This document shows, in pieces, positions 1 to 12,671 of a DNA stretch of 26,370 bases. The notes under the pieces are model-generated. The model saw nothing but the letters and a program-made list of their open reading frames with translations. It ran no database searches and had not been told where the DNA came from. Numbering within the stretch: position 1 is the stretch's first letter; the number at the start of each line of letters is the position of its first letter. The position numbers and the translations under genes were made by a program. This stretch comes from an uncultured Candidatus Saccharibacteria bacterium (GTDB lineage: Bacteria > Patescibacteriota > Minisyncoccia > Phycocordibacterales > UBA9973): assembly GCA_964543175.1 (NCBI GenBank), contig CAZIWS010000003.1, positions 1 through 26,370 on the forward strand, in the 5' to 3' direction.

Positions 1-1250
1 GTGTCTCTATCTCGCACGGTCACTGTATCGTTTTCTAAAGTTTCAAAATCTACTACAATGCAAAATGGCGTACCAATTTCATCTTGCCTTCTATATCTTT
101 TACCAATATTGCCATTATCATCCCAAATTACTCTACCAAATTCTTCCTTAAGTGGCGCAAATACTTTAACATTAGCATAATCAACAAGCTCTGGTTTATT
201 TTTAAGTAATGGCGAAACAGCACAAATAACTGGTGCAATACTTGGTTTTAATTTCAAAAATGGACGTTCTATATCTTCTTCATTGTAAGAAGAAAGTAAA
301 ACTGCCAAAACAGCTCGGTCAACACCAAAAGTTGGCTCTATGACATGTGGAAATATCTTTTCTTGACCTGATCCTTTTGAAAGATCTTCGTCTAAGTATT
401 CAAGTCCATGATTTTTTAAATCAAAATCAGTTCTATAGGCTAAACCAAAAAGTTCTTTCTGTCCAAATGGATATTCAAATTCAAAATCAACTGTTCTTTT
501 TGAATAATGAGCCAAATCATCTTCGGGAATTTCAACGTCATGAACTTTTGCCATATCAATACCAACTTCTTCTATCCATTCAAGCATTTCACTTTTCCAA
601 TATTCAAAATATTTTTCCCAATCCTCAGCTCGAAGAAAATATTCAATTTCCATTTGTTCAAATTCTCTTACCCGAAAAATAAAATCTCTTGGGGTAATTT
701 CATTACGAAAAGCTTTACCAATTTGCGCAATACCAAAAGGAAGTTTTGGGTGAAATGCATCTACTGTATTTTTAAAATTAACAAAAATTCCTTGTGCTGT
801 TTCTGGACGCAAATATGAAATAGCTGAAGTGTCTTCTGATACCCCAACTTTTGTTTGAAACATTAAATTAAATTTTTTAGCTTCTACTAAATTTCCTTTA
901 CATTCTTGACATTTTTCTTTATTTTCAATTTGATCAGTTCTAAATCTTTTTTTACATTTTTCACATTCAACCATTGGGTCAGCAAAATTTTCAACATGGC
1001 CTGCTTTTTGCCATACCTCTTGTCTCATTAAAATTGAAGCATCTATTCCATACATATCTCTTCGAGAATCTACAAACTTTTTCCACCAAGAATTTTTTAT
1101 ATTATTTTTTAAGGCTAAGCCAAAATGTCCCCAATCATAAGTTCCAGCTAAACCACCATAAATTTCAGAACCCGAAAAAATAAAACCTCTTCTCTTACAA
1201 AGAGAAACAATTTTTTCCATTAATTCTTTATTTGTATCTTTATTTTTCAT
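1..1250 (-). CDS. glyQS: Glycine--tRNA ligase, homodimeric (alpha2) class II type; 3' end runs off the window
   Basis: Not in the ORF track. Translated by hand from ATG at 1250 (alternative ATG 1220): MKNKDTNKELMEKIVSLCKRRGF..SEIYGGLAGTYDWG, YLRPETAQGIFVNF, FGIAQIGKAFRNEITPRDFIFRVREFEQMEIEYF, PHVIEPTFGVDR, anticodon domain GNIGKRYRRQDEIGTPFCIVVDFETLENDTVTVRDRD. The frame was checked at several points and is open at position 1. Confidence 0.97.
   Translation of the reverse strand, partial: MKNKDTNKELMEKIVSLCKRRGFIFSGSEIYGGLAGTYDWGHFGLALKNNIKNSWWKKFVDSRRDMYGIDASILMRQEVWQKAGHVENFADPMVECEKCKKRFRTDQIENKEKCQECKGNLVEAKKFNLMFQTKVGVSEDTSAISYLRPETAQGIFVNFKNTVDAFHPKLPFGIAQIGKAFRNEITPRDFIFRVREFEQMEIEYFLRAEDWEKYFEYWKSEMLEWIEEVGIDMAKVHDVEIPEDDLAHYSKRTVDFEFEYPFGQKELFGLAYRTDFDLKNHGLEYLDEDLSKGSGQEKIFPHVIEPTFGVDRAVLAVLLSSYNEEDIERPFLKLKPSIAPVICAVSPLLKNKPELVDYANVKVFAPLKEEFGRVIWDDNGNIGKRYRRQDEIGTPFCIVVDFETLENDTVTVRDRD
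362..383 (-). repeat. Degenerate copy of the CCmTTCGA-N4-CTCAGG element, in frame in glyQS (LSKGSGQ)
   Basis: Minus strand CTTTCAAAAGGATCAGGTCAAG resembles the ileS copy CCATTCGACAAGCTCAGGACAG; it encodes extra residues just before RYFPHVIEP. Confidence 0.5.
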
Positions 1251-1285
1251 TTTTTTATTTTTAAAAATTTTTAAATTAATAAATA

Positions 1286-3220
1286 TTATTCAATAACAAT
1301 TTCACCATAAGTAGGAAAAGATGGGTCATTTAAAAGTCTGGTATTTAAAGAATTTCGGTAAACTTTAATTTCAGCATTAGCAAAATCATCTTTAGCGCTT
1401 AATACAGTTTCATTAATAATAACAGGAGAGGTGTTTAATTGCGAAATAGATGGTTTAAGTGAAATTTGAAAAGCTATTTCTCTACCTTCTTGAGAAATTC
1501 CTGAACCTCTAGACAATGCTCCAATATTCCAAATTAATTCTTTAGAAGAACTATTATATTTTAAATCTTCAGATGGAGGAGAAATATTACCAACAAAATT
1601 AACCCAAGCTGGAAGAGAAGATCGAACTTGAACATTAGAAAGATTATTAGAAGTGTTAGAAATAGCCCAAACAATAGTATAAGTAGTTTCCTGTTCTTTT
1701 TTAGGAGGAATAGGGCCGGAGTTTTTAAAAGGACCAGAGAAATACAAAGCCTTGGTTGCTAAACCAACATCAGAAAGAACTTTAATAACTTTTGATTCAC
1801 TATTTACTAATTTTTGACTAGCATTTCCTTCTAAGGGCTGTTTACCTGAAATAGAAATATCAACATAAACTGAAGGATCAGCAACTATACCACCCACTGA
1901 AGAAAACAATGGGAAAGTTAAAAAATCAAAAGAAACTATTCCATTATCACCCGGATCCACTTCTGAAAAATTATATTCAAAACTTTTATTCCAAACAATA
2001 CTCTTAGTGGAAGAATCATAAAAACCATTTTTAGGATTTATACTTTTTTCATTTATAATATTTCCGGTTATTTTAGCAACAATTTCTAAATCATTTATTT
2101 TAGTATCTAAATTATTAACCCAACGAACCTGCCCAGTAATTTTATTTTTAGAATCAACAACATATTCTCTTTGATAAGAATTATTTACAAAAAGCTTAGC
2201 TTCAATAAAAGGTTTTTTAACTAAAATTTTATGACTTAAGGAATTAAAAATTATACCAATGGATGATTTATCAGAGCTTGACTGAGAACCACTAAAAACA
2301 TGAAAAACTTTTTCTTCTCCATCAAAAACTTCGGCCATTTTTCCAAAAATAGAAATTTCATTTTCAGAGCCTACTTGAATATCACCTAGATTCCAAACAT
2401 TGTCGCCAAAAGAAGGAGTAGGGCTGGCTGAGGTAAATTCAAAGCCAATGGGATAATCCATTTTTAAAAGAATTTGAGAAGCTGAATTAGTAGAATTTAA
2501 ATTAACTTTTACTTTTAAATTTATATCTTGATTTAAGCTAACTTCACTGGGGCCTTCAATTAAAAGATTAATGGGGGCTGAGCTAATGGAAACTTCATGT
2601 AATTTTTCTTTGACAAAAATAGAATTAGAACCTTCTAAACGATATTCTAAAGAAATTCTAATAGGCCTAATGCTACCCTGCTCACCAAAAAGAATTATTT
2701 TTATATTCTCACTTTTAATTCCCCCAGCAGGAATTGTTCCCAATGATTCTCTAATTCTTTCTGTTTCTTTAGATAAATCTCCTGAAGAATTTTTAGGATA
2801 TTCAATTAATAAATCAGATAATAAAAGATTTGAATTATTTTTATTAACTATTTCAATTTGGAGTGGAAGACTTTCTCCTCCAGCAACAAAAGAATTTCCC
2901 AAAACAGTAATTTCGATATTTTTATTAGAAACAGTATTGCCTTTTATAAAAAACATATAGCCTCCATAAAGCAAAGCTAAGATAAAAAAGGCTACTGAAA
3001 AAATAAAAAATTTTTTAAAAATAGAACTTTTTTGAGTAAAAATTTTTTGAGTTTTGGTCATTTTGTCTTTAACGGATTCTTGCCAAGAATCAGGAATTAC
3101 TTTTTTAAAACGAACACTACTAAAGTGATCAACGTGATCATTTTCCATTTGATAATCTCTACTGAAAAGTTTATTTTTAAGTTTTTCTATTCCATTTAAT
3201 TTATCTCTATCATTTAACAT
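1286..3220 (-). CDS. Membrane-anchored hypothetical protein with about four tandem Ig-like (DUF11/CARDB-like) domains
   Basis: 644-aa ORF with one hydrophobic helix (FFIFSVAFFILALLYGGYMFFI) followed by repeated beta-rich units: YP..F...W.LG....G (DYPIGFEF..VWNLGDIQVG; SLPAWVNF..IWNIGALSRG; EYPKN..LGTIPAG; IVWN..EVDPG). Confidence 0.8.
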   Translation of the reverse strand: MLNDRDKLNGIEKLKNKLFSRDYQMENDHVDHFSSVRFKKVIPDSWQESVKDKMTKTQKIFTQKSSIFKKFFIFSVAFFILALLYGGYMFFIKGNTVSNKNIEITVLGNSFVAGGESLPLQIEIVNKNNSNLLLSDLLIEYPKNSSGDLSKETERIRESLGTIPAGGIKSENIKIILFGEQGSIRPIRISLEYRLEGSNSIFVKEKLHEVSISSAPINLLIEGPSEVSLNQDINLKVKVNLNSTNSASQILLKMDYPIGFEFTSASPTPSFGDNVWNLGDIQVGSENEISIFGKMAEVFDGEEKVFHVFSGSQSSSDKSSIGIIFNSLSHKILVKKPFIEAKLFVNNSYQREYVVDSKNKITGQVRWVNNLDTKINDLEIVAKITGNIINEKSINPKNGFYDSSTKSIVWNKSFEYNFSEVDPGDNGIVSFDFLTFPLFSSVGGIVADPSVYVDISISGKQPLEGNASQKLVNSESKVIKVLSDVGLATKALYFSGPFKNSGPIPPKKEQETTYTIVWAISNTSNNLSNVQVRSSLPAWVNFVGNISPPSEDLKYNSSSKELIWNIGALSRGSGISQEGREIAFQISLKPSISQLNTSPVIINETVLSAKDDFANAEIKVYRNSLNTRLLNDPSFPTYGEIVIE

Positions 3221-3226
3221 TTGTTA

Positions 3227-3256
3227 ATTATAACCTTTTTGGGTGCTATTTTACAA
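3227..3256 (-). promoter_or_regulatory. Putative sigma70 promoter for the 644-aa gene (leaderless)
   Basis: TTGTAA (3256->3251), 18-nt spacer, TATAAT (3232->3227), 6 nt, then ATG at 3220. Confidence 0.6.
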
Positions 3257-3832
3257 ATGGCTTTCTTTTAATGCTTTATTTATTTCCATAAAAATAAATT
3301 TTTTATTTTTACTGGTTTTAAGTATTAATTCTTCTCCTAGGGGTAAATTGACAATTTCTTTGTTTATTTTAGCATCACCAATGTAACCTAAATTGTTTAA
3401 TAATCGTAAAACAATTATGGCTTCAATGTTTTTTAAGTCTTCAGTTGTTTCATATTTTTCTAAAAAAGATAAACCGTTTAACAAAACATCAAATAATTTT
3501 TTATTTAAATCTTCACCAATGATTAACCTTTTTAATAATTGAGAAATATTAAAAACTATTTCTAGGGTTTCTTTTTTCTTAGAAACTTTCTCTAATTTAT
3601 TAATTTTAGAAGCACTGGTTATTCGCCAAAAATCTTTTCCTTTAACTAAATCTAGTTTAGCGTAGCTAAAATCCTGCAAAACAAAGCGAAGCTTAGAAGA
3701 TAATTTTCTAATTCCTTGAGCTGAAGCATAAATCATACCCAGATCACGAGTAAAAATATGAAAATATTTATCAGCCTCTCGATAATTTTTACTACCCAAA
3801 ATCAATCCTTCAGTATGATAAATATGATGCAT
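3251..3832 (-). CDS. recO: DNA repair protein RecO (short form)
   Basis: N-terminal OB-fold pattern HTEGLILGSKNYREADKYFHIFTRDLGMIYASAQGIRKLSSKLR and C-terminal LRLLNNLGY. Confidence 0.9.
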   Translation of the reverse strand: MHHIYHTEGLILGSKNYREADKYFHIFTRDLGMIYASAQGIRKLSSKLRFVLQDFSYAKLDLVKGKDFWRITSASKINKLEKVSKKKETLEIVFNISQLLKRLIIGEDLNKKLFDVLLNGLSFLEKYETTEDLKNIEAIIVLRLLNNLGYIGDAKINKEIVNLPLGEELILKTSKNKKFIFMEINKALKESHL

Positions 3833-3879
3833 AAAGTTCGCTAAATAAAAATAAATAAATTAAATATATTTAAATAATC

Positions 3880-6800
3880 TTATTTTTTAATAGAAATCTT
3901 AAAAAATAAATTATCAATTTTTATTTCCTCGCCATTGTTTTCAGAAAAATTAATATTTTTTGCATTAACTGTTTTAATTAAATTAATTTCAAACTTTTTT
4001 AACAATTCTTCTCCAGTTTTATCTGTTTCAATTTCTAAAACTATCTCATCACTTGGATTTAAGTTAGCTTTTTTGCGTAAACCTTGAACTGCTCTAACAA
4101 ATTCACGATAGCACCCTTCTTTTTTTAATTCTTCGGTAATTTCTAAATTAAGTTCAATTTCTTCAGAAAGATTCTGATCAAAAACAATTTCTTTTACATT
4201 TAACTCATCTTGAATTAATTCTAAATATTCTTCTGATAATTTTATACTTTTTACCTTTAGCTCATTGAGCGGTTGCCTAACTGGAATACCAGCTTTTTGT
4301 CTAGACTGTAAACCTAAAGTTACAATTTTTCTAATCTTTTCCATTTCATTTATAATCTTTTTATCATTCTTCCCCCCAAAAACTCTGTCAAAGATGCCCT
4401 TTGACATTTTTGGCCAGGTGGCTAAATGAATGCTTTGTTCGTCTTGATTGTTTTTTAATTTTTGCCAAATATCTTCAGCAGAGAATGGAGCAAAAGGAGC
4501 CATTAATTTAGCAAGATTTTTTAAAACATAATATAAAGTTTTTCTCGCCTCGCCATAGCTTTGTGCGGAGGCGGATTGACTTGCCTCTTCTTTAATACGC
4601 TCTCGTGAACGACGCAAATACCATGTTGAAAGATCGTCAATAAATTCACGTATGGCCCTAACTGGTTCAATTAATTTATAGTTATTTAATTTTTCAGTAC
4701 AAAGAATATTTAATTCTTTAAATCTATTTAAAATCCAAATATCAAGAACGTTTAAATTATTTTTAGGTTCATGGTTGCTATTTTCTAATGAAGGATCTCT
4801 ATAAAGTTCATAAAAAGCTAAAACATTATAAAGTAAATTAAAAATTTTATTATGTAATTCAGAAACAGTTTTTTCGTCAAAGTTTTTTGATTCACCTGGC
4901 TGATTAACTGAATACATCCAAAGTCTTAATGTGTCTACTCCATATTTATCGATCATCACCCACGGATCAACAACATTACCAAGTGACTTACTCATTTTCT
5001 TGCCACTAGCATCAAGTAAGTGGCCTAAACAAATTACATTTTTATAAGCTTTTCCTTTGCCCATAATTGAGCCAACAGCATGAAGAGTATAAAACCATCC
5101 TCTAGTTTGGTCTATTGCTTCTGAAATAAAATCAGCTGGATAACCCTTGCCACTATCTATTAAATCTTTATTTTCAAAAGGATAATGGTCTTGAGCAAAA
5201 GGCATTGCTCCAGAGTCAAACCAAACATCCATTACTTCTTTAGTTCTTTCTAATTTTCCACCACAAGTCTGTCCTGAGCTTGTCGAATGGTCACAAATCA
5301 AACTAATTTGATCAATATACGGTTTATGTAAATCTAAATTAAAATTATTATCATGAGGCATTGGAATAAAATCTAATTTTCTTACTTCAGCATTTTGAAA
5401 AACTGGAAACTTTTTTCGATAATCTAAAATATTTTTAAAATTAAAATCTAAATAATCAGTACTAAAAGACAAGCGAGCAACTGATTCATGAGAGATAATA
5501 AGAATATTTTTATTTTGGTATTTTTTTTCAATATCGTATAAAAATTCAGAAATTCTTTTTTTAACATCTAAAAGAGATTCCGCTTTTTCTTGGGCATTTT
5601 CAAAAAAATTAGGATATTCAGCCCATTTTTTACCTTGATAATTACCTGCATTTAGTTCCCATAATCTAGAGTCAAAAATAATTTGATCTTCTGAAAGATT
5701 TAATTCTTTTAAAACAATTTCAGCTGTTTCTTTTGTGCGCACAAAATCTGAAGCAAAAATTAAATCAATATTTAAATCTTTTAATTTTTTAGTAGCCTCT
5801 AATACTTGTTTTTTTCCTAAGGTCGTTAAGTTATCTAAATCATCTTTTTTAGAACTAATTTTAAAAGTTAAATTACTTTGTGCTTCTCCATGACGCATAA
5901 TAAAATATTTATTTCCAGATTTTTTTGTTTTACTTTTTAAATCAGCAATCCCATTAAATACTTCAACTTTATTACATTTATCACAATGCCAAATAGGAAG
6001 AGGTGTTCCCCAATATCTTTCTCGAGAAATTGCCCAATCTTTTATTTCCCGAAGCCACTCACCAAAACGACCTTCTTTAATATGATCTGGTTCCCAGTTT
6101 ATTTCTTTGTTTTCTTTAACCATTTGGTTTCTTAAAGAAGTCATTTTTAAATACCAAGAATCTCGAGCATAATAAATAAGAGCGGTTTTACAGCGCCAAC
6201 AGTGTGGATATGCGTGTTCATATTTTTCTTTTTTCAAAAGTAAATTTCTAGCGGCTAAATCTTTAATAATATCAACTGCCACCTCTTCATCACGAACAAA
6301 TCTTTTTTCTAAAAAACCTGTACCAGTAAAAAATTTACCATCAAGTCCAACTAAATGATGTTTTGGTAAGTTAATTTTATTTCCTAAAACAAAATCATCT
6401 TGTCCATACATAACTGCAGTGTGAACAACTCCGGTTCCATCTTGGGTTGTTACAAAATCAGCATTATAAATTTTATAAGCATTTACTAATTTTTCTTTTT
6501 CTAAACCAGAAATTAAGTTTTGGGTAAATAAATAAAGTGGTTCATATTCAAGTCCAATTAAATCTTTACCTTTAAATTCTTCTATAATTTCATATTCCCC
6601 ATCCAAAACTGAAATTCTTTCCTTAGCAAGAATATAAAATTCATTTTCTTTTTTAATTTTTATATAAATAATTTCTTCGCCTATTGCCAAAGCAACATTA
6701 CCAGGCAAAGTCCAAGGAGTTGTTGTCCAAGCTAGAATAAAAACACTCTCTTGATTTTTAACTTTAAACTTAACATAAACTGATAAATCTTTTACTGTTT

Positions 6801-7422
6801 CATACCCTTGAGCTAATTCATGTGAAGAAAGTCCAGTTCCGCAACGAGGACACCAAGGCACAACTTTATAATCTTTATAAAGTAATCCTTGCTTATTAGC
6901 TTCTTTAATAACATTCCAAACAGATTCAATATATTTATTATGATAAGTTACATAAGGATTTTCTTGATCTACCCAAAAACCAATTCTTTCGGTAAATTTA
7001 TTCCAATATTCTAAATAATTCCAAACACTTTCTTTACACTTTTGATTAAAAGGCCCAATACCATATTCTTCAATTTCTTTTTTAGAAGTAAGGCCAAGTT
7101 CTTTTTCTACCTGAAGCTCAACTGGAAGACCGTGAGTATCCCAACCTCCTTTTCTAGCAACATGAAAACCTTGCATTGTTTTGTAACGAGGAATCACGTC
7201 TTTAAACGCTCGGGCTTCTAAATGATGAATACCTGGTTTACCATTAGCAGTTGGAGGGCCTTCATAAAAAACATATCTACCTTTTTTACCCTTCGAAGAG
7301 CTCAGGGTTTTCTCAAAAATTTTATTTTCTTGCCAAAATTTTAAAATTGCTTCTTCGCGAAGCGCTGATTCTGATTTATTACTTATCTCGAACTTAGTCG
7401 AGGCATTTTCTTCATTGTTCAT
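3880..7422 (-). CDS. ileS: Isoleucine--tRNA ligase type 2 with an inserted histidine-phosphatase domain
   Basis: FYEGPPTANGKPGIHH, GWDTHGLPVE, AWTTTPWTLPGN, GTGVVHTA, DWAISRERYWGTPLPIW, DVWFDSGAMP, EAIDQTRGWFY, KMSKSLGN, WYLRRSR; long IleRS2-type C-terminus (RQKAGIPVRQPL). Confidence 0.98.
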   Translation of the reverse strand: MNNEENASTKFEISNKSESALREEAILKFWQENKIFEKTLSSSKGKKGRYVFYEGPPTANGKPGIHHLEARAFKDVIPRYKTMQGFHVARKGGWDTHGLPVELQVEKELGLTSKKEIEEYGIGPFNQKCKESVWNYLEYWNKFTERIGFWVDQENPYVTYHNKYIESVWNVIKEANKQGLLYKDYKVVPWCPRCGTGLSSHELAQGYETVKDLSVYVKFKVKNQESVFILAWTTTPWTLPGNVALAIGEEIIYIKIKKENEFYILAKERISVLDGEYEIIEEFKGKDLIGLEYEPLYLFTQNLISGLEKEKLVNAYKIYNADFVTTQDGTGVVHTAVMYGQDDFVLGNKINLPKHHLVGLDGKFFTGTGFLEKRFVRDEEVAVDIIKDLAARNLLLKKEKYEHAYPHCWRCKTALIYYARDSWYLKMTSLRNQMVKENKEINWEPDHIKEGRFGEWLREIKDWAISRERYWGTPLPIWHCDKCNKVEVFNGIADLKSKTKKSGNKYFIMRHGEAQSNLTFKISSKKDDLDNLTTLGKKQVLEATKKLKDLNIDLIFASDFVRTKETAEIVLKELNLSEDQIIFDSRLWELNAGNYQGKKWAEYPNFFENAQEKAESLLDVKKRISEFLYDIEKKYQNKNILIISHESVARLSFSTDYLDFNFKNILDYRKKFPVFQNAEVRKLDFIPMPHDNNFNLDLHKPYIDQISLICDHSTSSGQTCGGKLERTKEVMDVWFDSGAMPFAQDHYPFENKDLIDSGKGYPADFISEAIDQTRGWFYTLHAVGSIMGKGKAYKNVICLGHLLDASGKKMSKSLGNVVDPWVMIDKYGVDTLRLWMYSVNQPGESKNFDEKTVSELHNKIFNLLYNVLAFYELYRDPSLENSNHEPKNNLNVLDIWILNRFKELNILCTEKLNNYKLIEPVRAIREFIDDLSTWYLRRSRERIKEEASQSASAQSYGEARKTLYYVLKNLAKLMAPFAPFSAEDIWQKLKNNQDEQSIHLATWPKMSKGIFDRVFGGKNDKKIINEMEKIRKIVTLGLQSRQKAGIPVRQPLNELKVKSIKLSEEYLELIQDELNVKEIVFDQNLSEEIELNLEITEELKKEGCYREFVRAVQGLRKKANLNPSDEIVLEIETDKTGEELLKKFEINLIKTVNAKNINFSENNGEEIKIDNLFFKISIKK
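4547..4575 (-). repeat. Short GC-rich hairpin element in frame in ileS (SASAQSYGEA)
   Basis: TCCGCCTCCGCACAAAGCTATGGCGAGGC; the GCCTC/GAGGC arms pair; it encodes extra residues after the WYLRRSRER helix. Confidence 0.6.
5269..5290 (-). repeat. CCmTTCGA-N4-CTCAGG element in frame in ileS (HSTSSGQ)
   Basis: CCATTCGACAAGCTCAGGACAG; shares TTCGA..CTCAGG with the copies at 7288-7308 and 10698-10718. Confidence 0.75.
5368..5913 (-). other. Histidine phosphatase (PGM-like, His_Phos_1) domain embedded in IleRS
   Basis: YFIMRHGEAQSN (RHG, Arg codon 5893-5895), IFASDFVRTKETA, DSRLWELNAG, ESLLDVKKR, NILIISHES (His codon 5488-5490), NAEV. Boundaries are approximate. Confidence 0.9.
7288..7308 (+). repeat. 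CCmTTCGA-N4-CTCAGG element in opposite orientation in ileS (TLSSSKG)
   Basis: ACCCTTCGAAGAGCTCAGGGT with 5-bp terminal inverted repeat ACCCT/AGGGT. Confidence 0.75.
7383..7403 (-). repeat. Related short hairpin element at the ileS N-terminus (ASTKFEI)
   Basis: CCTCGACTAAGTTCGAGATAA; CTCGA/TCGAG stem with a 6-nt loop. Confidence 0.5.
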
Positions 7423-7430
7423 ATTTTATA

Positions 7431-7439
7431 ATCTTATCA
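7431..7439 (-). promoter_or_regulatory. Putative extended -10 promoter for ileS
   Basis: TGA-TAAGAT, 8 nt before the ATG at 7422; no Shine-Dalgarno. Confidence 0.35.
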
Positions 7440-7503
7440 AAAAAATTAACAATTAGAAAGATTTAAATGGGGCTTGATTTTTATTTCAATTTTTATAATT
7501 TAA

Positions 7504-7538
7504 AAACTAACTACTAGAAACTAGTCCCTAGAAACTAA
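7504..7538. repeat. Intergenic heptamer tandem array, 5 x NNNCTAR
   Basis: aaactaa ctactag aaactag tccctag aaactaa, in exact 7-nt phase, starting 4 nt past the argS stop. Confidence 0.8.
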
Positions 7539-7542
7539 TTCT

Positions 7543-9372
7543 TTACATTTTCTCTGGAATTTGAATTCCCAAAAGCCAAAGCCCATTTTGCATAGTTTGA
7601 TAAAATGCTTGAACAAGTTTTAAATGATATTTAATATTAGAATTATCCTCACTTAGAATTTTATTCTGTACATAAAAAGAGTTAAAAGAACTCGCTAGTT
7701 GAGTTAAATAAGTAGCAATATGGTGTGGTTCAAAATTTAAATATGCTTTTTCTACTATTTCTGGAAATTGATGAAGAGTTTTTTCAAGAGATTCTTGTGA
7801 AAAAAAAGTTGTGTCTGAAATACCTTGAAAGCGCGACGGCGTGAACACGAGGAATTTTTTAGTAGAAAAATATCCGTGCATTTTAGAAATAACTTTTTTT
7901 TCTAAAGCCTTAACTAAAATAGATTTCGCTCGAACAGCAGTATATTGTAAATATGGCCCTGAGTCACCTTCAAAAGAAATTGATTTTTCAAAATCAAAAA
8001 CAATATCTGAGCCCAAAGAAGATCGAAGAATAGAATATTTTAAAGCTGAAACTCCTACAATTTCTGAAATTTTATTTTTCTCTTCTTTAGAAAAATTTCG
8101 ATCAGCTACTTTTTCTAAAATAACATTTATGGAATTCTGCAAAAGAGACACCCCGGTGACAACATTACCTAAACGAGAAGACATTTTGCCTTCAGCAAAA
8201 CGCATCATGCCATGGACAACATGTTTCATCTTTTTTTCTAAATCAGGATGTATTACGGAAATTGCTTTTTGAACTACTTTCATATATTCTGCTTGTTCAT
8301 TTGCAGTAATTACAATTGATAAATCTAAACTTTTTTGCCAAAAAGATTTTTTAAATTTTCTTAAACTTAAACCTAATTCTTTTGTTTCATAGGTAGGTAA
8401 ACCCTGAGAATTAATAAAAACCCGAGTATGTAATTTTGAATCATATTTTTCTCCATGAAAAACAATGGCCTTTTCTGATTCTTCAAAAATTTCACCAAAA
8501 TTTTGCCAAACAATTTTTTTGCCCTCATTGATCATCTGACTTTCAAAATAATACTTATCAAATTTTGTACCTAAAATTTTATAAATTTCCTCAAAAGATT
8601 CAAGGGTTATTTTTATTCCCCAGTTGTAAATTTCATTTATTTTTTTATCACTTTTGTTATAAATTTTTTTATTTATTTCAGTTATTTCTTTTTTAATATT
8701 TTCGTCACTGTCATATAGATTACTGCCTTTTGAATAACATAAACCAATATATTCAGCTTTTTGTGATATAGATAAATCATCTCTAGGCAAACCATCCTGT
8801 ATTAAAATATAAATAGCTTTAGCAATATGAGGACCAACATCACCTTGATAATTTGCCCTAATTATATTTGCTCCAGAAAATTCAACTATTCTAGAAATGG
8901 ATTCACCAATAGCATTACTCATCAAATGCCCAATATGAAAAGGTTTAAAAGGATTTGGCTGAGTATATTCAACCATAATTTTTTTACCTTTAGATAAATT
9001 ATTTTTCCCCCAGTTTTCACCTTGTTTTAAAATATTTTCAATATTTGCTGTAAAAAATTCTCTTGATAAGTAAAAATTAATAAATCCTGGACCAGCAATT
9101 TGAATTTCCTGAATTAAACCCCCACCCTTGCCCTCCCCCTTAATAAGGGGGAGGGTTTTGAGGGAGTCGATCCTTTTCATTTCATTTACAATCTTCTCTG
9201 CCAACTCTTTAGGATTCATTTTTAATTGTTTAGCATAAACCATAGCCACATTAGTGGAGTAATCACCATTTTTAAAATCTTCCGGATGCTCTAAGTTTAT
9301 ATCTTTAACTTCAACCTTAAGATTTTCTAAAACTTTTTTTATTAAATTTTCTATTTTATATTTAATGTCCAT
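7543..9372 (-). CDS. argS: Arginine--tRNA ligase
   Basis: LEHPEDFKNGDYSTNVAM, IAGPGFINF, MVEYTQPNPFKPFHIGH (HIGH), GLPTYETKELG, GKMSSRLGN, SFEGDSGPYLQYTAVRA, EPHHIATYL. Confidence 0.98.
   Translation of the reverse strand: MDIKYKIENLIKKVLENLKVEVKDINLEHPEDFKNGDYSTNVAMVYAKQLKMNPKELAEKIVNEMKRIDSLKTLPLIKGEGKGGGLIQEIQIAGPGFINFYLSREFFTANIENILKQGENWGKNNLSKGKKIMVEYTQPNPFKPFHIGHLMSNAIGESISRIVEFSGANIIRANYQGDVGPHIAKAIYILIQDGLPRDDLSISQKAEYIGLCYSKGSNLYDSDENIKKEITEINKKIYNKSDKKINEIYNWGIKITLESFEEIYKILGTKFDKYYFESQMINEGKKIVWQNFGEIFEESEKAIVFHGEKYDSKLHTRVFINSQGLPTYETKELGLSLRKFKKSFWQKSLDLSIVITANEQAEYMKVVQKAISVIHPDLEKKMKHVVHGMMRFAEGKMSSRLGNVVTGVSLLQNSINVILEKVADRNFSKEEKNKISEIVGVSALKYSILRSSLGSDIVFDFEKSISFEGDSGPYLQYTAVRAKSILVKALEKKVISKMHGYFSTKKFLVFTPSRFQGISDTTFFSQESLEKTLHQFPEIVEKAYLNFEPHHIATYLTQLASSFNSFYVQNKILSEDNSNIKYHLKLVQAFYQTMQNGLWLLGIQIPEKM
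7798..7875 (-). repeat. 78-nt in-frame insertion element in argS (GYFSTKKFLVFTPSRFQGISDTTFFS)
   Basis: GC-rich core gcgcgacggcgtgaacacgagg (16/22 GC) with a run of rare codons GTG TTC ACG CCG TCG CGC; imperfect inverted A/T arms; 26 codons inserted in the linker after SILVKA. Confidence 0.65.
9118..9168. repeat. 51-nt GC-rich palindromic element in frame in argS (DSLKTLPLIKGEGKGGG)
   Basis: Perfect 12-bp inverted repeat ccctccccctta (9131-9142) / taagggggaggg (9144-9155); 31/51 GC in a very AT-rich gene. Confidence 0.85.
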
Positions 9373-9395
9373 TTAACTTTATATTTATAAACTTT

Positions 9396-9818
9396 TTACT
9401 TTCTTCCTGTTGAACCAAATGCTCCTTCACCTCGAGATGATTCTGATAATTCTTGAACTTCTTCTAACTCTGCAATAACTACTGGATATATTATTAATTG
9501 AGAAACTTTATCCCCCTTCTCTATAGTATATGGTTCACTGCTTAGATTAACAAGATGAGTATTATATTCTCCGCGATAACCAGCATCAAACACTCCGCCC
9601 ATGGTATGAAGACCAGCCTTAGAAATACTACTTTTATCTTTTACAATAGCTGCATAACCTTCAGAAAATTCCATAGCAAAACCATGCCAAATTCTTACAT
9701 GCTCCATCGGCTGTAAAGTAATACTTTCCATGGCATATAAATCCATACCCACATCTCCCAAGTGATGATATTTAGGCAATTTCGCATCTTCTTTTAATTT
9801 TTTTATTTTAATTTGCAT
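9396..9818 (-). CDS. dut: dUTP diphosphatase (trimeric)
   Basis: All five motifs recognisable: GDVGMDL, KDKSS, GVFDAGYRGE, GDKVSQL, RGEGAFGSTG. Confidence 0.97.
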   Translation of the reverse strand: MQIKIKKLKEDAKLPKYHHLGDVGMDLYAMESITLQPMEHVRIWHGFAMEFSEGYAAIVKDKSSISKAGLHTMGGVFDAGYRGEYNTHLVNLSSEPYTIEKGDKVSQLIIYPVVIAELEEVQELSESSRGEGAFGSTGRK

Positions 9819-9821
9819 ATT

Positions 9822-10403
9822 TTATTGCATTGGATCCTTCCCCTCTTTAATGTGAATTAAAGCAAAAATTAAATAGTTTGTAATATCAAAAAGCGAATCT
9901 AAAATTTTTGGATTTAATTTTATAGATTTTTTATTATCTTTTTTTATAAAATTTTCCATTTTAATAATTCTATCAGTTTTTACTAATGCTTCATCAATTA
10001 TGGCAGAAACCCTCATCTTCTTCCAAGATTCTCCATAATCATGATTTTTCTTTAACAACATTTTTTTTATTTCAAAAATTATTTTTTTTATTTTGATAGA
10101 ATTTATAACTTTAACGTCTTTATTTTCTTGTAATCTCCAAATTCTAAAAAGAACATAATTTATTGTATGTGTAACGGTTTCCTCAATTGATTCGTTGATT
10201 AAATTTGATTTTTTCTCTTGTATAGATCTAATTCTTGAAAGTTTAGTTAAAATTCTATCACTAATAGAAGAAGGCCTATACCTACAAACACTTGAACCAT
10301 ATTCTTTCTTTTTTGATTCAATAATATTTAAACATTCGCTTGATATTTCATCAAACCAAAAAACTGTATCTTTATATTCTTTTTCTTTCTTATTCTTTAT
10401 CAT
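9822..10403 (-). CDS. Tandem DUF1599 (nucleotide-modification-associated) domain protein
   Basis: Two repeats: KKKEYGSS..RPSSISDRILTKLSRIRSIQE..INYVLF and KKNHDYGESWKKMRVSAIIDEALVKTDRI..FDITNYLIFALI. These match the KNHDYGEAW.MR.SS.TD.I..K..R..D.INY pattern I recall for DUF1599. Confidence 0.75.
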   Translation of the reverse strand: MIKNKKEKEYKDTVFWFDEISSECLNIIESKKKEYGSSVCRYRPSSISDRILTKLSRIRSIQEKKSNLINESIEETVTHTINYVLFRIWRLQENKDVKVINSIKIKKIIFEIKKMLLKKNHDYGESWKKMRVSAIIDEALVKTDRIIKMENFIKKDNKKSIKLNPKILDSLFDITNYLIFALIHIKEGKDPMQ

Positions 10404-10492
10404 AAAAATTTTTTATAAATTATTTTTCTTAAAAATATTTTTTATAATTTCTGATAATTCTTTTTGTTAATCCCGAAAAATATATTTTCATA

Positions 10493-11755
10493 TTATTTAC
10501 TTCTTAAAATTTTATCTATCTTCTTGGCAATAGCGACCATATCTTTTTCTTTTTTACCGCGAGTTGTTTCTGCACAAGTGCCAAGGCGGATTCCAGATGG
10601 ATCCATTGGCTTTCGAGTATCTCCTGGAATTGTATTCATGTTTACAATAATTCCAGCTTTTTCTAATTTTTCACTTGCTTGTCGACCACTTAGTGGTCGC
10701 CCTGAGAAATTCGAAGGGTTACCTGTGCTACCCCAAACATCAACTAAAATCAAATGAGAATCGGTGCCACCAGAAACAATATGCCAACCTAAACGATTTA
10801 ATTCACCAGCTAAAGCTTGAGCATTTTTAATTACTTGCTTGGCATATTTTTTAAAACTAGAACCCATGGCTTCTTGCAAAGCCACAGCCACGGCGGCTAT
10901 TGTATTTTCATGCGGTCCACCAAAAAGTCCTGGAATAATTACTTTATCAATTTTTTTATCAAGTTCTCTAGGGTCTTTTTTAACAAAAATTAAAGCATGT
11001 CTTGGTCCCCGAAGTGATTTATGGGTAGTGGTCATTACCACATCAGCATATTTAAAAGGACTTGGGTAAACATCACCAGCCACCAAGCCAGCAAAGTGAG
11101 ACATATCTACATGTAAAATTGCTCCTTTTCTTCCATCAGAATAAATTACTGCATCAGCTATTTCTCTGAACTTTTTAAAATCAACTATTCTTGGATAGGC
11201 AGTAAAACCACAAACTATTAAATCAGGTTTTTCTTTTATGGCTAATTCTTTTAATGCTTGATAATCAATTTTTTCTGTTTTAGGATCAACTTCAAATTGA
11301 ACTGAAGTCCATAATTTTCCAGTCATCGAAGCAGGGTGCCCATGAGTTAAATGGCCACCAGAAGATAATTTCATCCCCATTATTTTCCCACCAATAGGTA
11401 CCAGAGCAGAATAAATAGCAAAATTAGCCGGGCTACCAGAAAGAGGTTGTACATTTACGTGCCAAATATCTTTAGATATTTGGCCCTGAGCCTTAGTGGC
11501 GAATGGGCCATCTCCTTTTAATTTAAAAAGTTTTAAAGCTCTTTCAATACAAAGATTTTCAACTTGATCAATAATTTCATTTCCTCCATAATATCTTCGG
11601 CCTGGATAACCTTCAGCATATTTATTAGTAAGCTCTGATCCTAGTGTTTTTAAAACATCTTTAGAAACATAATTCTCAGAAGCAATTAAATTAATAACCT
11701 TTTTTTGTCTTTTAATTTCACTTTTAATTAACTTTTCAATTTTTTTATCTTGCAT
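10493..11755 (-). CDS. glyA: Serine hydroxymethyltransferase
   Basis: LIASENY, NKYAEGYPGRRYYGG, NVQPLSGSPAN, GGHLTHG, TTTHKSLRGPR (PLP lysine), GGPHEN, GGTDSHL, PSGIRLGT. Confidence 0.98.
   Translation of the reverse strand: MQDKKIEKLIKSEIKRQKKVINLIASENYVSKDVLKTLGSELTNKYAEGYPGRRYYGGNEIIDQVENLCIERALKLFKLKGDGPFATKAQGQISKDIWHVNVQPLSGSPANFAIYSALVPIGGKIMGMKLSSGGHLTHGHPASMTGKLWTSVQFEVDPKTEKIDYQALKELAIKEKPDLIVCGFTAYPRIVDFKKFREIADAVIYSDGRKGAILHVDMSHFAGLVAGDVYPSPFKYADVVMTTTHKSLRGPRHALIFVKKDPRELDKKIDKVIIPGLFGGPHENTIAAVAVALQEAMGSSFKKYAKQVIKNAQALAGELNRLGWHIVSGGTDSHLILVDVWGSTGNPSNFSGRPLSGRQASEKLEKAGIIVNMNTIPGDTRKPMDPSGIRLGTCAETTRGKKEKDMVAIAKKIDKILRSK
10698..10718 (-). repeat. CCmTTCGA-N4-CTCAGG element in frame in glyA (PSNFSGR)
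   Basis: CCCTTCGAATTTCTCAGGGCG, immediately followed by the perfect palindrome CGACCACT-A-AGTGGTCG (10683-10699). Confidence 0.75.
11481..11510 (-). repeat. Long-loop variant of the same element in frame in glyA (GPFATKAQGQ)
   Basis: TGGCCCATTCGCCACTAAGGCTCAGGGCCA; 6-bp terminal inverted repeat TGGCCC/GGGCCA; shares CCATTCG and GCTCAGG with the ileS copy. Confidence 0.75.
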
Positions 11756-11763
11756 ATTTATTT

Positions 11764-11772
11764 ATATTATCA
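11764..11772 (-). promoter_or_regulatory. Putative extended -10 promoter for glyA
   Basis: TGA-TAATAT, 8 nt before the ATG at 11755. Confidence 0.35.
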
Positions 11773-11786
11773 CAAAAAAGAATAAA

Positions 11787-12671
11787 TTACTTATTAAATA
11801 AATTATTGCTAAAAGCAAATTTATATCCCAAGCCATCCATGGTTATTTTCAACATACCTAATTGATCTGTTCGAAATAATTGGACATTAAAATCAAATAA
11901 CAAATCCAAGACCTCTTGATGAGGGTGACCATAATTATTATTAAAACCACTTGAAATTAAAGCATATTGAGGGTCAACAGCTTGCAAAAAGTCTCTTGAG
12001 GTTGAACTACGAGAGCCATGGTGTCCTATTTTTAAAATATCATTTTTTAATTTTTCAGAAGAATAATTAGCTAAAAGAATTTTTTCAGTTTTAGAGGTGG
12101 CATCACCCGTTAAAAGAATTGAGTTATTTTTATAAAAAAGCCGAGCAACTAAAGAACCATCATTTCTATCCCAACTTAAAACATCTTGATTAGGGAAAAG
12201 AATTTCAATAAAAACTTCATTTCCTAAATCTAAAATCATTCCTTTTTTAGCTAAAATATTAGGAATATTTTCTTTTTCTATTTCTTTTTTTAAGTTTTGA
12301 TATGTTTGAGAACTATTAGTAGTGCCAGGCTCTAAAATAATTCCCACTGAATAATTTTTTAAAATTTCAGAGAGCCCTCCAATATGGTCTTGGTCGGGAT
12401 TAGTAATAATAATTGCATCTAAGCTTCGATCAAAAGTAGGCATAATTCTAGAAAGCTGATTAATAATTTTTCTATTAGGGCCCGAGTCAACTAAAACTTG
12501 AATACCTGAAGAACTTTGAATTAAAAAAGCGTCTCCCTGTCCAACATCTAACATACTAAAAGTTACTTGGCGGTGAGAATTTAAATAATCAATTCTAAAA
12601 AGAATCAAATTAAAAATCACTAAAAATATACATATAAAAACTAAATAAAGTTTTTTATAATTCTTAAGCAT
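11787..12671 (-). CDS. comEC: ComEC/Rec2-type metallo-beta-lactamase-fold protein (stand-alone C-terminal domain) with N-terminal membrane anchor
   Basis: MLDVGQGDAFLI, VLVDSGP, ITNPDQDHIGG, NDGSLV, ILLTGDA, KIGHHGS, ISSGFNNNYGHPH, RTDQLG. Confidence 0.9.
   Translation of the reverse strand: MLKNYKKLYLVFICIFLVIFNLILFRIDYLNSHRQVTFSMLDVGQGDAFLIQSSSGIQVLVDSGPNRKIINQLSRIMPTFDRSLDAIIITNPDQDHIGGLSEILKNYSVGIILEPGTTNSSQTYQNLKKEIEKENIPNILAKKGMILDLGNEVFIEILFPNQDVLSWDRNDGSLVARLFYKNNSILLTGDATSKTEKILLANYSSEKLKNDILKIGHHGSRSSTSRDFLQAVDPQYALISSGFNNNYGHPHQEVLDLLFDFNVQLFRTDQLGMLKITMDGLGYKFAFSNNLFNK

Follow-up and report, generated by a model that had tools for sequence, protein, structure and literature searches.

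A probable family of 22-26-nt insertional DNA repeats in essential genes and the tmRNA gene of an ultra-small Paceibacteria bacterium

Introduction

Several housekeeping genes on one contig of an ultra-small bacterium of the Paceibacteria, within the candidate phyla radiation (CPR), carry copies of a short sequence of the form CCmTTCG...TCAGG, and the locus raises the question of whether these copies are pieces of inserted DNA and, if so, of what kind and by what agent they were placed. The window analysed, 26,370 nucleotides (nt) long, is contig C3 of a 762-kb genome with 29% G+C in 133 contigs (labelled G000; G-numbers denote genomes, C-numbers contigs, L-numbers loci and P-numbers alleles of glyA, the gene of serine hydroxymethyltransferase, SHMT). 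A sequence-only reading of this window had described five copies of a palindromic element in ileS, glyA and glyQS, interpreted as a short non-autonomous mobile element that finds refuge in tolerant protein loops. The observation is real and was confirmed in part, and its interpretation is supported in part. With a probability that we put at about three in four, the copies belong to a family of insertional DNA repeats that are non-autonomous and very small (22-26 nt), each composed of a core and a variable tail; as far as the sequence comparisons below can tell, the repeat would behave like one of the smallest insertional DNA elements known.

Results

Motif enrichment and structure of the repeat unit

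The pattern CC[AC]TTCG-N5-16-TCAGG occurs nine times in the genome, four of them in the window, against means of 0.13-0.53 in order-1 and order-3 Markov simulations and none in the reversed sequence, which were the baselines used for enrichment; the motif is thus commoner than chance. The related pattern CCNTTCG-N4-14-CTCAGG also yields nine matches genome-wide (0.07 simulated, 0 reversed), and looser rules bring the family to about 15 members in the genome. With so low a copy number the family did not surface in a k-mer over-representation scan of the genome. In the genus and order sample the same CCNTTCG-N4-14-CTCAGG pattern gave 67 matches in 31 genomes, with 0-12 per genome, as compared with 16 for a control pattern.

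The core is the 19-mer CCCTTCGACAAGCTCAGGG, in which CCC/GGG, often lengthened to 5-7 bp, closes a 13-nt loop. A position matrix built from 258 unique copies in other genomes and viral contigs shows conservation over the 19-mer and about 7 nt on its 3' side (GYGARCGG), and the 5' side shows no conservation apart from two bases that are weakly complementary. The unit is hence asymmetric, a 19-mer core followed by a variable 3' tail of 3-7 nt, 22-26 nt in all and with a short terminal inverted repeat only, and tandem arrays repeat with periods of 22, 23, 24 and 26 nt. Arrays of four copies at a 22-nt period and of three at a 23-nt period were seen among loci L331 (G257:C58), L237 (a viral contig) and L332 (G400:C2).

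Across copies the stems are G-C rich and 3-7 bp long, with loops of 13-18 nt. As single-stranded DNA (ssDNA), the ileS copy at 5290 folds no better than its shuffles (z +0.5), that at 7288-7308 forms a weak 5-bp hairpin (z -1.5), and in the others the fold is either weak (z -1.5) or made stable by an adjacent palindrome. The name palindromic element therefore overstates the structure: a short stem is present, a true palindrome is not, and the stable palindromes are neighbouring sequences.

Genome-wide, the motif is read in all five stop-free frames on both strands (the sixth frame contains a TGA), the commonest reading in genes being of the STSSGQ type; in the window STSSGQ, PSNFSG and PFATKAQG are sense readings and TLSSSKG an antisense one. 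The earlier claim of conservation at the DNA level holds, since one and the same 15-19-mer is translated in five frames of the two strands and is met in intergenic DNA and the tmRNA gene as well. The units are inserted into DNA regardless of coding. The intragenic copies lie in variable loops and, in the orthologue alignments, their insert lengths are multiples of three, both as anticipated; about half of the genome's copies are intergenic or in an RNA gene, so that protein loops are not their sole refuge. Outside protein-coding genes, copies of the family have been found in intergenic spacers, behind tRNA genes, within hairpins resembling terminators and in a loop of tmRNA. At one locus of Staskawiczbacteria (L040:339-431) a canonical core begins at the base right after the 3' end of a tRNA gene.

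No Rfam family was found at any motif site, either in an E-value scan of window positions 1-12000 or in a gathering-threshold scan of 14 loci from other phyla. A universal RNA was considered as the source of the core and rejected, there being no extended match to the rRNA or tRNA regions of the genome. Judged by GC skew there is no replication-strand bias, with eight copies on the G-rich and seven on the C-rich strand.

Filled and empty sites in ileS and glyA

Insertions were assessed by aligning the genes codon by codon, both with orthologues taken from 30 related genomes and with closer alleles from metagenomes, the P-numbered SHMT alleles (coordinates are given in Table 1). Four of the five copies described earlier lie exactly where they had been placed (5290->5269, 7288-7308, 10718->10698 and 11510->11481), and the fifth could not be demonstrated. 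That these copies appear as extra residues between conserved motifs is likewise correct for the ileS unit at 5290 and for both glyA sites, and fails for the ileS copy at 7288.

The ileS unit at 5267-5290, which is bounded by a GAC...GAC direct repeat and adds eight amino acids (aa), is missing from seven of eight IleRS orthologues. In G016 the same site holds a diverged unit of the same length, AATTCAACAGGCTCAGGGCAA, because of which the unit is probably old or its site a hot spot. The copy at 7288-7308 adds only one codon relative to eight orthologues, within a linker that is variable in sequence and conserved in length, and since it adds so little it is best read as a replacement rather than a clean insertion. 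The hairpin at 7403->7383, formerly listed as related, has a 5-bp stem, lacks the TTCG...CTCAGG core and accounts for +4 aa in a region of variable length; it does not belong here. Nor can membership be upheld for the supposed decayed copy in glyQS (383->362), which agrees with the core in only some 12 of its 19 positions and needs an indel to do so, folds with z -1.0 and amounts to a difference of +5 aa (15 nt) in a loop that also varies in L152.

In glyA, the site A insert contains the hairpin TGGCCC-ATTCGCCACTAAGGCTCA-GGGCCA (11510->11481), and base pairing joins the 3' end of the insert to coding sequence downstream of it (CCAAATATCT/AGATATTTGG). It is absent from all seven genus and order orthologues and from P0003, P0005, P0007 and P0009, of which P0003 and P0005 are among the alleles nearest to the window gene, and it is present in P0002, P0004, P0006 (judged at the protein level only), P0008, P0011 and P0014, being common to alleles about 78-92% identical at the protein level. 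Where DNA was compared (P0002, P0004, P0008, P0011 and P0014), its stem and core are progressively degraded.

Site D holds the core CCCTTCGAATTTCTCAGGG (10718->10700), followed directly by a palindrome with 8-bp arms, CGACCACTAAGTGGTCG (10699->10683). This insert is shared with P0007 and P0009 only; P0002, P0003 and most orthologues lack it. The surrounding tract of about 120-150 nt is 87-92% identical to P0009, as against 72-80% for the remainder of the gene, and the insert therefore came into the window lineage by homologous recombination. The third codon positions of the site D core are 7/7 conserved relative to P0007 and P0009; selection on the hairpin at the DNA level was considered as a cause and set aside, the recombination tract being the explanation.

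The sequence just downstream of each glyA insert recurs, inverted, at the end of that insert. The gene has four insertion hot spots, and clean canonical 24-mers occupy site B of P0003 (GG-CCCTTCGACAAGCTCAGGACAAGG-C) and site D of P0005 (GG-CTCTTCAACAAGCTCAGGACAAGC-A), two alleles with about 85% nucleotide identity to the window glyA. Insert presence is patchy among SHMT alleles 85-92% identical, and one palindrome adjoining a copy shows a compensatory pair change between alleles. As an AlphaFold model of the protein (mean pLDDT 55) was too poor for placing the inserts, an alignment to the solved SHMT 3pgy was used instead; the inserts at sites A and D and a further one at 11113-11133 are all missing from it.

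The window copies are thus not recent jumps, but are old and have been moved between lineages by recombination, because site A is decaying, site D sits in a recombination tract and the ileS unit is shared with one congener.

Two side observations concern the same gene. At SHMT aa 208-214 (window 11113-11133) the third insert, IYSDGRK, is AT-rich, adds seven aa and does not contain the motif; most close alleles retain it, but it is missing in orthologues further away and in the solved SHMT, with a gap placement good to one residue. Along glyA (10493-11755) the alleles are mosaic, the similarity switching between P0009, P0003 and P0005 in blocks of 100-200 nt, and this switching indicates that SHMT alleles probably recombine frequently in the clade. 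The window that holds this mosaic gene also encodes ComEC and type IV pilus proteins.

Copies elsewhere in the genome and in related genomes

Further in-frame copies were found in the genes of CysRS (antisense, PELVEG), TsaD, a Mur ligase and MnmA. The TsaD insert (G000:C42:~2950-3060), absent from TsaD of G016 and G002, is a mosaic of four mini-hairpins about 105 nt long. A second copy, about 90% identical to it, occupies the intergenic space that separates metG from a DUF559 gene (G000:C14:~9880-9990; the pair L159/L160). It should be noted that the genome's only DUF559 endonuclease gene adjoins the C14 copy, a single case. G006 and G013 have different GC-rich inserts at the same TsaD site.

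The tmRNA gene (G000:C53:1498-1952, L163) carries a clean 45-nt insert in the PK1 loop, consisting of two inverted copies and absent from five congeners. The gene measures 455 nt in this genome and 396-402 nt in the five congeners; it has a further hairpin insert of 14-15 nt (CCGCCAACTGGCGG), and in the genus the tmRNA encodes an unusually long tag reading frame of 27 residues with a CCAUACUUCGGUAUG hairpin.

The converse arrangement was also met. Relatives have copies in a GAPDH-like gene and in two other genes where the corresponding G000 sites are empty, the GAPDH-like case being a replacement and not a clean insertion. At the argS site (window 9118-9168) G015 has a TTCG...CTCAGG copy (MTLRQAQGG) and G000 a different insert, which is GC-rich, in frame and of another sequence family.

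An inserted copy becomes an ordinary part of its gene, being inherited, decaying by point mutation and exchanged between related lineages by homologous recombination, and copies can be joined by further mini-hairpins to give mosaics.

Distribution across bacteria and viruses

In an even set of 401 Patescibacteria genomes, searched for the exact core, 67 genomes (61 of 319 genera) carry it, with up to 32 copies each, and none of the 401 carries the control; the suggestion that the family is widespread in CPR was therefore correct. Beyond the phylum, at least 119 exact-core loci in more than 15 phyla were found among 185,579 species genomes, the listed cross-phylum matches including cultured Microbacterium, Microlunatus, Sphingopyxis and Porphyrobacter, and the IMG/VR viral contigs contain at least 118 core loci. 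In a Chloroflexaceae genome (L048) one copy splits a heptamer array. In two CPR genomes, copies adjoin classical TGTC-tagged ATTCC...GGAAT hairpins of the repetitive extragenic palindromic (REP) type. Our literature searches yielded no description of the CCCTTCGACAAGCTCAGGG core or of its cross-phylum distribution, and nothing relevant on its peptide translations or on in-frame palindromes of CPR.

Candidate mobilising enzymes

Among the genes encoded in the window there is no transposase or nuclease candidate, in agreement with the sequence-only reading, and no reverse transcriptase was found in the genome. Genes for Y1 transposases (IS200-like or RAYT-like) number one in G000 and 0-11 per genome in the genus. 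Inspection of seven of them, in G000 and its relatives, showed every gene to have a separate cognate hairpin on both sides, which is of the TGTCAAAGG-N5-CCTTTGACA type and distinct from the TTCG...CTCAGG motif. Across the 401 genomes, 42 of the 67 motif-bearing and 139 of the 334 other genomes are Y1-positive (odds ratio 2.4, p = 0.002, uncorrected for relatedness). Y1 enzymes are not required for the presence of the motif, because 25 carriers, including the richest with 32 copies, have none, and the analogy that had been drawn with REP elements and their RAYT transposases is not supported.

The Y1 genes deserve notice in their own right. They encode about 210-270 aa (G000:C59:243-1055, L165, and L182-L187 in relatives), the G000 gene has its cognate hairpin ATATCAAGGGGAGTCCTTGATAT on both sides, and up to 11 such genes occur in genomes of 600-700 kb. 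Orphan hairpins of the Y1 type are present on C29 (three, about 260 nt apart), C48, C2 and C4. Together, the Y1 genes and their cognate hairpins look like a REPtron-like system in Paceibacteria.

Other features of the window

The coordinates of the copies and of the surrounding genes are collected in Table 1. Two further features of ileS were noted. At window 4547-4575 it contains a GC-rich in-frame insert (SQSASAQS) that is of a different sequence family and is shared with G016. Moreover, IleRS aa 507-653 (window 5368-5913) form a complete histidine-phosphatase domain (His_Phos_1) within the catalytic region, a fusion that is conserved, because the overall length of IleRS does not differ among orthologues of the genus and order.

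Table 1. Positions of motif copies, inserts and genes in the window.
Feature	Position	Strand	Remarks
24-nt unit in ileS, CCATTCGACAAGCTCAGGACAGAC	5267-5290	-	In frame, read HSTSSGQT, between two Cys codons
Core copy in ileS, ACCCTTCGAAGAGCTCAGGGT	7288-7308	+	Antisense to ileS, read TLSSSKG; family member by pattern
Hairpin CTCGA-CTAAGT-TCGAG	7383-7403	-	Variable N-terminus of ileS; not a family member
glyA site D insert	10691-10732	-	14 codons replace 6, net +24 nt (+8 aa)
glyA site A insert, GDGPFATKAQGQIS	11474-11515	-	42 nt (+14 aa)
Claimed decayed copy in glyQS	362-383	-	LSKGS; membership not demonstrable
Genes for GlyRS, DUF11 protein, RecO, IleRS, ArgRS, dUTPase, DUF1599 protein, SHMT, metallo-beta-lactamase-fold protein	3-12671	-	
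Genes for SOD, ComEC, RNase H, RecJ, HIT, PGK, TIM, type IV pilus proteins (PilB/PilC)	Rest of window		

Discussion

Origin of the copies

As an account of these copies, a small insertional repeat would work as follows. Insertion may take place on or through a single-stranded hairpin, leaving direct repeats of 2-3 bp (GAC...GAC, GGC...GGC, GG...GG), and the agent could be an enzyme that acts in trans, whether HUH/Y1-like or of another type and perhaps carried by phages, or else a templated synthesis that is primed by microhomology and copies another unit. The flanking repeats of 2-3 nt and the inverted copies at the ends of the glyA inserts fit either a small target duplication or such templated synthesis. 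In genes, selection would remove disruptive insertions, so that in-frame, stop-free copies in loops come to predominate. Horizontal spread of the core is suggested because it is identical across phyla; ComEC and type IV pilus proteins are encoded in the genome, and the core is common in viral contigs.

Several results weigh against this account. The events at ileS 7288, glyA site D and the GAPDH-like gene are replacements and not clean insertions, and the evidence for insertion consists of filled and empty sites compared between lineages or alleles, none of them within one population. For the target duplication that the earlier interpretation had suggested looking for, the candidates are the direct repeats at three clean inserts, whose boundaries were chosen after the fact. 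Reverse transcriptase and Y1 were looked for and no mobilising enzyme was identified; the sole Y1 gene of the genome is flanked by a hairpin other than the motif, and over a third of the motif-bearing genomes lack Y1, as given above. A mechanism acting strictly on lagging-strand ssDNA predicts an orientation bias with GC skew, which is not observed. Finally, copy number is low in the genus, copies within the genome differ in stem and loop, and no simple burst of copy-and-paste within a genome is evident except for the C14/C42 mosaic pair.

The points just listed are in part those that speak for templated patch insertion without a dedicated enzyme, which we hold to be unlikely on balance. Here gap or break repair, or template switching in replication, would copy a short stretch of another repeat, either genomic or taken up by natural transformation, with priming by 2-3 nt of microhomology and the hairpin, and the element would be a recurrent mutational product and not a transposon. 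Replacements, junctions with 2-3-nt direct repeats, the lack of a transposase associated with the motif and the visibly mosaic alleles would all be expected; the window encodes ComEC, PilB/PilC, RecJ and RecO, and snap-back synthesis would give glyA inserts that both end in an inverted downstream copy. The right arms of the glyA palindromes, however, are not fully ancestral, and the process by itself leaves unexplained why the same 19-mer should serve as template in more than 15 phyla and why clean 22-26-nt units and tandem arrays recur. A REP-like element moved in trans by the abundant HUH/Y1 (RAYT-like) transposases of the genus is less probable still: although the single Y1 gene of G000 has a motif copy about 230 nt upstream and carriers are more often Y1-positive, every inspected Y1 gene is bracketed by its own type of hairpin, G003 has 11 Y1 genes and no motif, no conserved GTAG-like tag is found 5' of the core, and the carriers without Y1 include the one with the most copies.

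The copies might instead be a convergent, host-selected feature, namely an RNA or DNA signal (protein-binding, RNase or pause site) or a selected flexible peptide linker. The predominance in genes of the STSSGQ-type frame, the compensatory pair change in a palindrome next to a copy and the third-position conservation at site D can be cited for it, but the last is explained by the recombination tract, and identical nucleotides serve as coding sequence in five frames of the two strands and are present in intergenic DNA and tmRNA as well. Such a signal should show a conserved position and synonymous-site constraint across independent lineages, neither of which is seen; presence is patchy even among alleles 85-92% identical, old copies lose stem and core (site A in P0004, P0008 and P0014), folding is weak and Rfam has no family at the motif sites. 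Hence we regard selection of this kind as very improbable.

Returning to the insertional repeat, a broader version can be put forward tentatively, and we would give it clearly less than even odds: the core may represent a pan-bacterial family of the smallest autonomous-looking units, carried between phyla by phages or DNA uptake and inserted without an element-encoded or lineage-specific transposase. One candidate for the inserter is then a conserved activity of the host's replication or repair that works on the hairpin.

Relation to described repeats

Among described kinds, the nearest in size and behaviour appear to be the small dispersed repeats (SDRs) of Nostoc, compared by description only, followed by intragenic REP elements and Rickettsia palindromic elements (RPEs). 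SDR1-8 of Nostoc punctiforme and its relatives are reportedly units of 21-27 nt with weak hairpin potential, presence or absence at orthologous sites, tandem or nested copies and some copies in genes or other repeats, and they are said to be described only from heterocystous cyanobacteria. We know of no mobilising mechanism for them, and their consensus sequences presumably differ from the 19-mer core. The present repeats resemble SDRs in unit size (clean 24-nt inserts and tandem periods of 22-26 nt), in presence or absence at orthologous sites (found here for ileS, glyA, TsaD and tmRNA), and in weak hairpins, tandem copies, intragenic copies and insertion into other repeats (L048); unlike SDRs, they have a core that is identical across more than 15 phyla and viral contigs, and many of their CPR copies are read in frame within essential genes or lie in tmRNA.

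RPEs measure about 100-150 bp and are not known outside Rickettsia. They insert in frame in genes that probably stay functional (PMC3733652). Being in frame and non-autonomous is common to both families, whereas the unit here is of 22-26 nt (24-42 nt for the window inserts), weakly palindromic and cross-phylum. The CGTC/TGTC-tagged REP superfamily comprises short stem-loops in many phyla, sometimes wholly in open reading frames including aminoacyl-tRNA synthetase genes (Di Nocera et al. 2013, PMC3733652); the CGTC-tagged members have 8-9-bp stems starting with A-T pairs, loops of 4-5 nt and a CCA tail, and are without a known transposase (PMC3733652). Short stem-loops, many phyla, intragenic copies and head-to-head dimers are shared, in contrast to the 3-7-bp G-C stem and conserved 13-nt loop found here. 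GTGAC(A)/ATGAC(A) tails, the complement of the TGTC tag, occur in 27 of the 258 cross-phylum copies, and in the window a TGTC (as GGACAG) adjoins the ileS 5290 copy alone.

REP/REPIN-RAYT systems are hairpin repeats with inverted doublets (PMC3116915), and both features recur here, the tmRNA insert being such a pair; differences are the lack of a GTAG tag in the 258-copy matrix, repeats that do not flank RAYT-like genes, the low copy number and the intragenic position of about half of the copies. In comparison with miniature inverted-repeat transposable elements (MITEs), which measure 70-300 bp and have 15-30-bp terminal inverted repeats and a matching transposase, the unit has 22-26 nt and an inverted repeat of 3-7 bp, and no matching transposase was found. 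Each of GTAG REPs, CGTC REPs, RPEs and MITEs has defining features that this family lacks, in the case of CGTC REPs those of stem and loop.

Significance

The patchy inserts among near-identical alleles provide markers for recombination and strain tracking. Peptides such as STSSGQ, FDKLR, LRQAQG, PELVEG and LSLSKG are to be read as translations of the repeat, and not as signs of homology or as functional motifs. The family accounts for many lineage-specific, GC-rich loop insertions in CPR housekeeping proteins and tmRNA, and it provides a way in which essential genes can gain length in genomes with almost no spare DNA. If a sequence of 22-26 nt inserts, or gets inserted, across phyla, it would set a lower size limit for mobile DNA and point to an insertion activity not yet known; and if the pan-bacterial reading is true, loop insertions in essential proteins and structural RNAs would have in it a general origin that has so far escaped notice.

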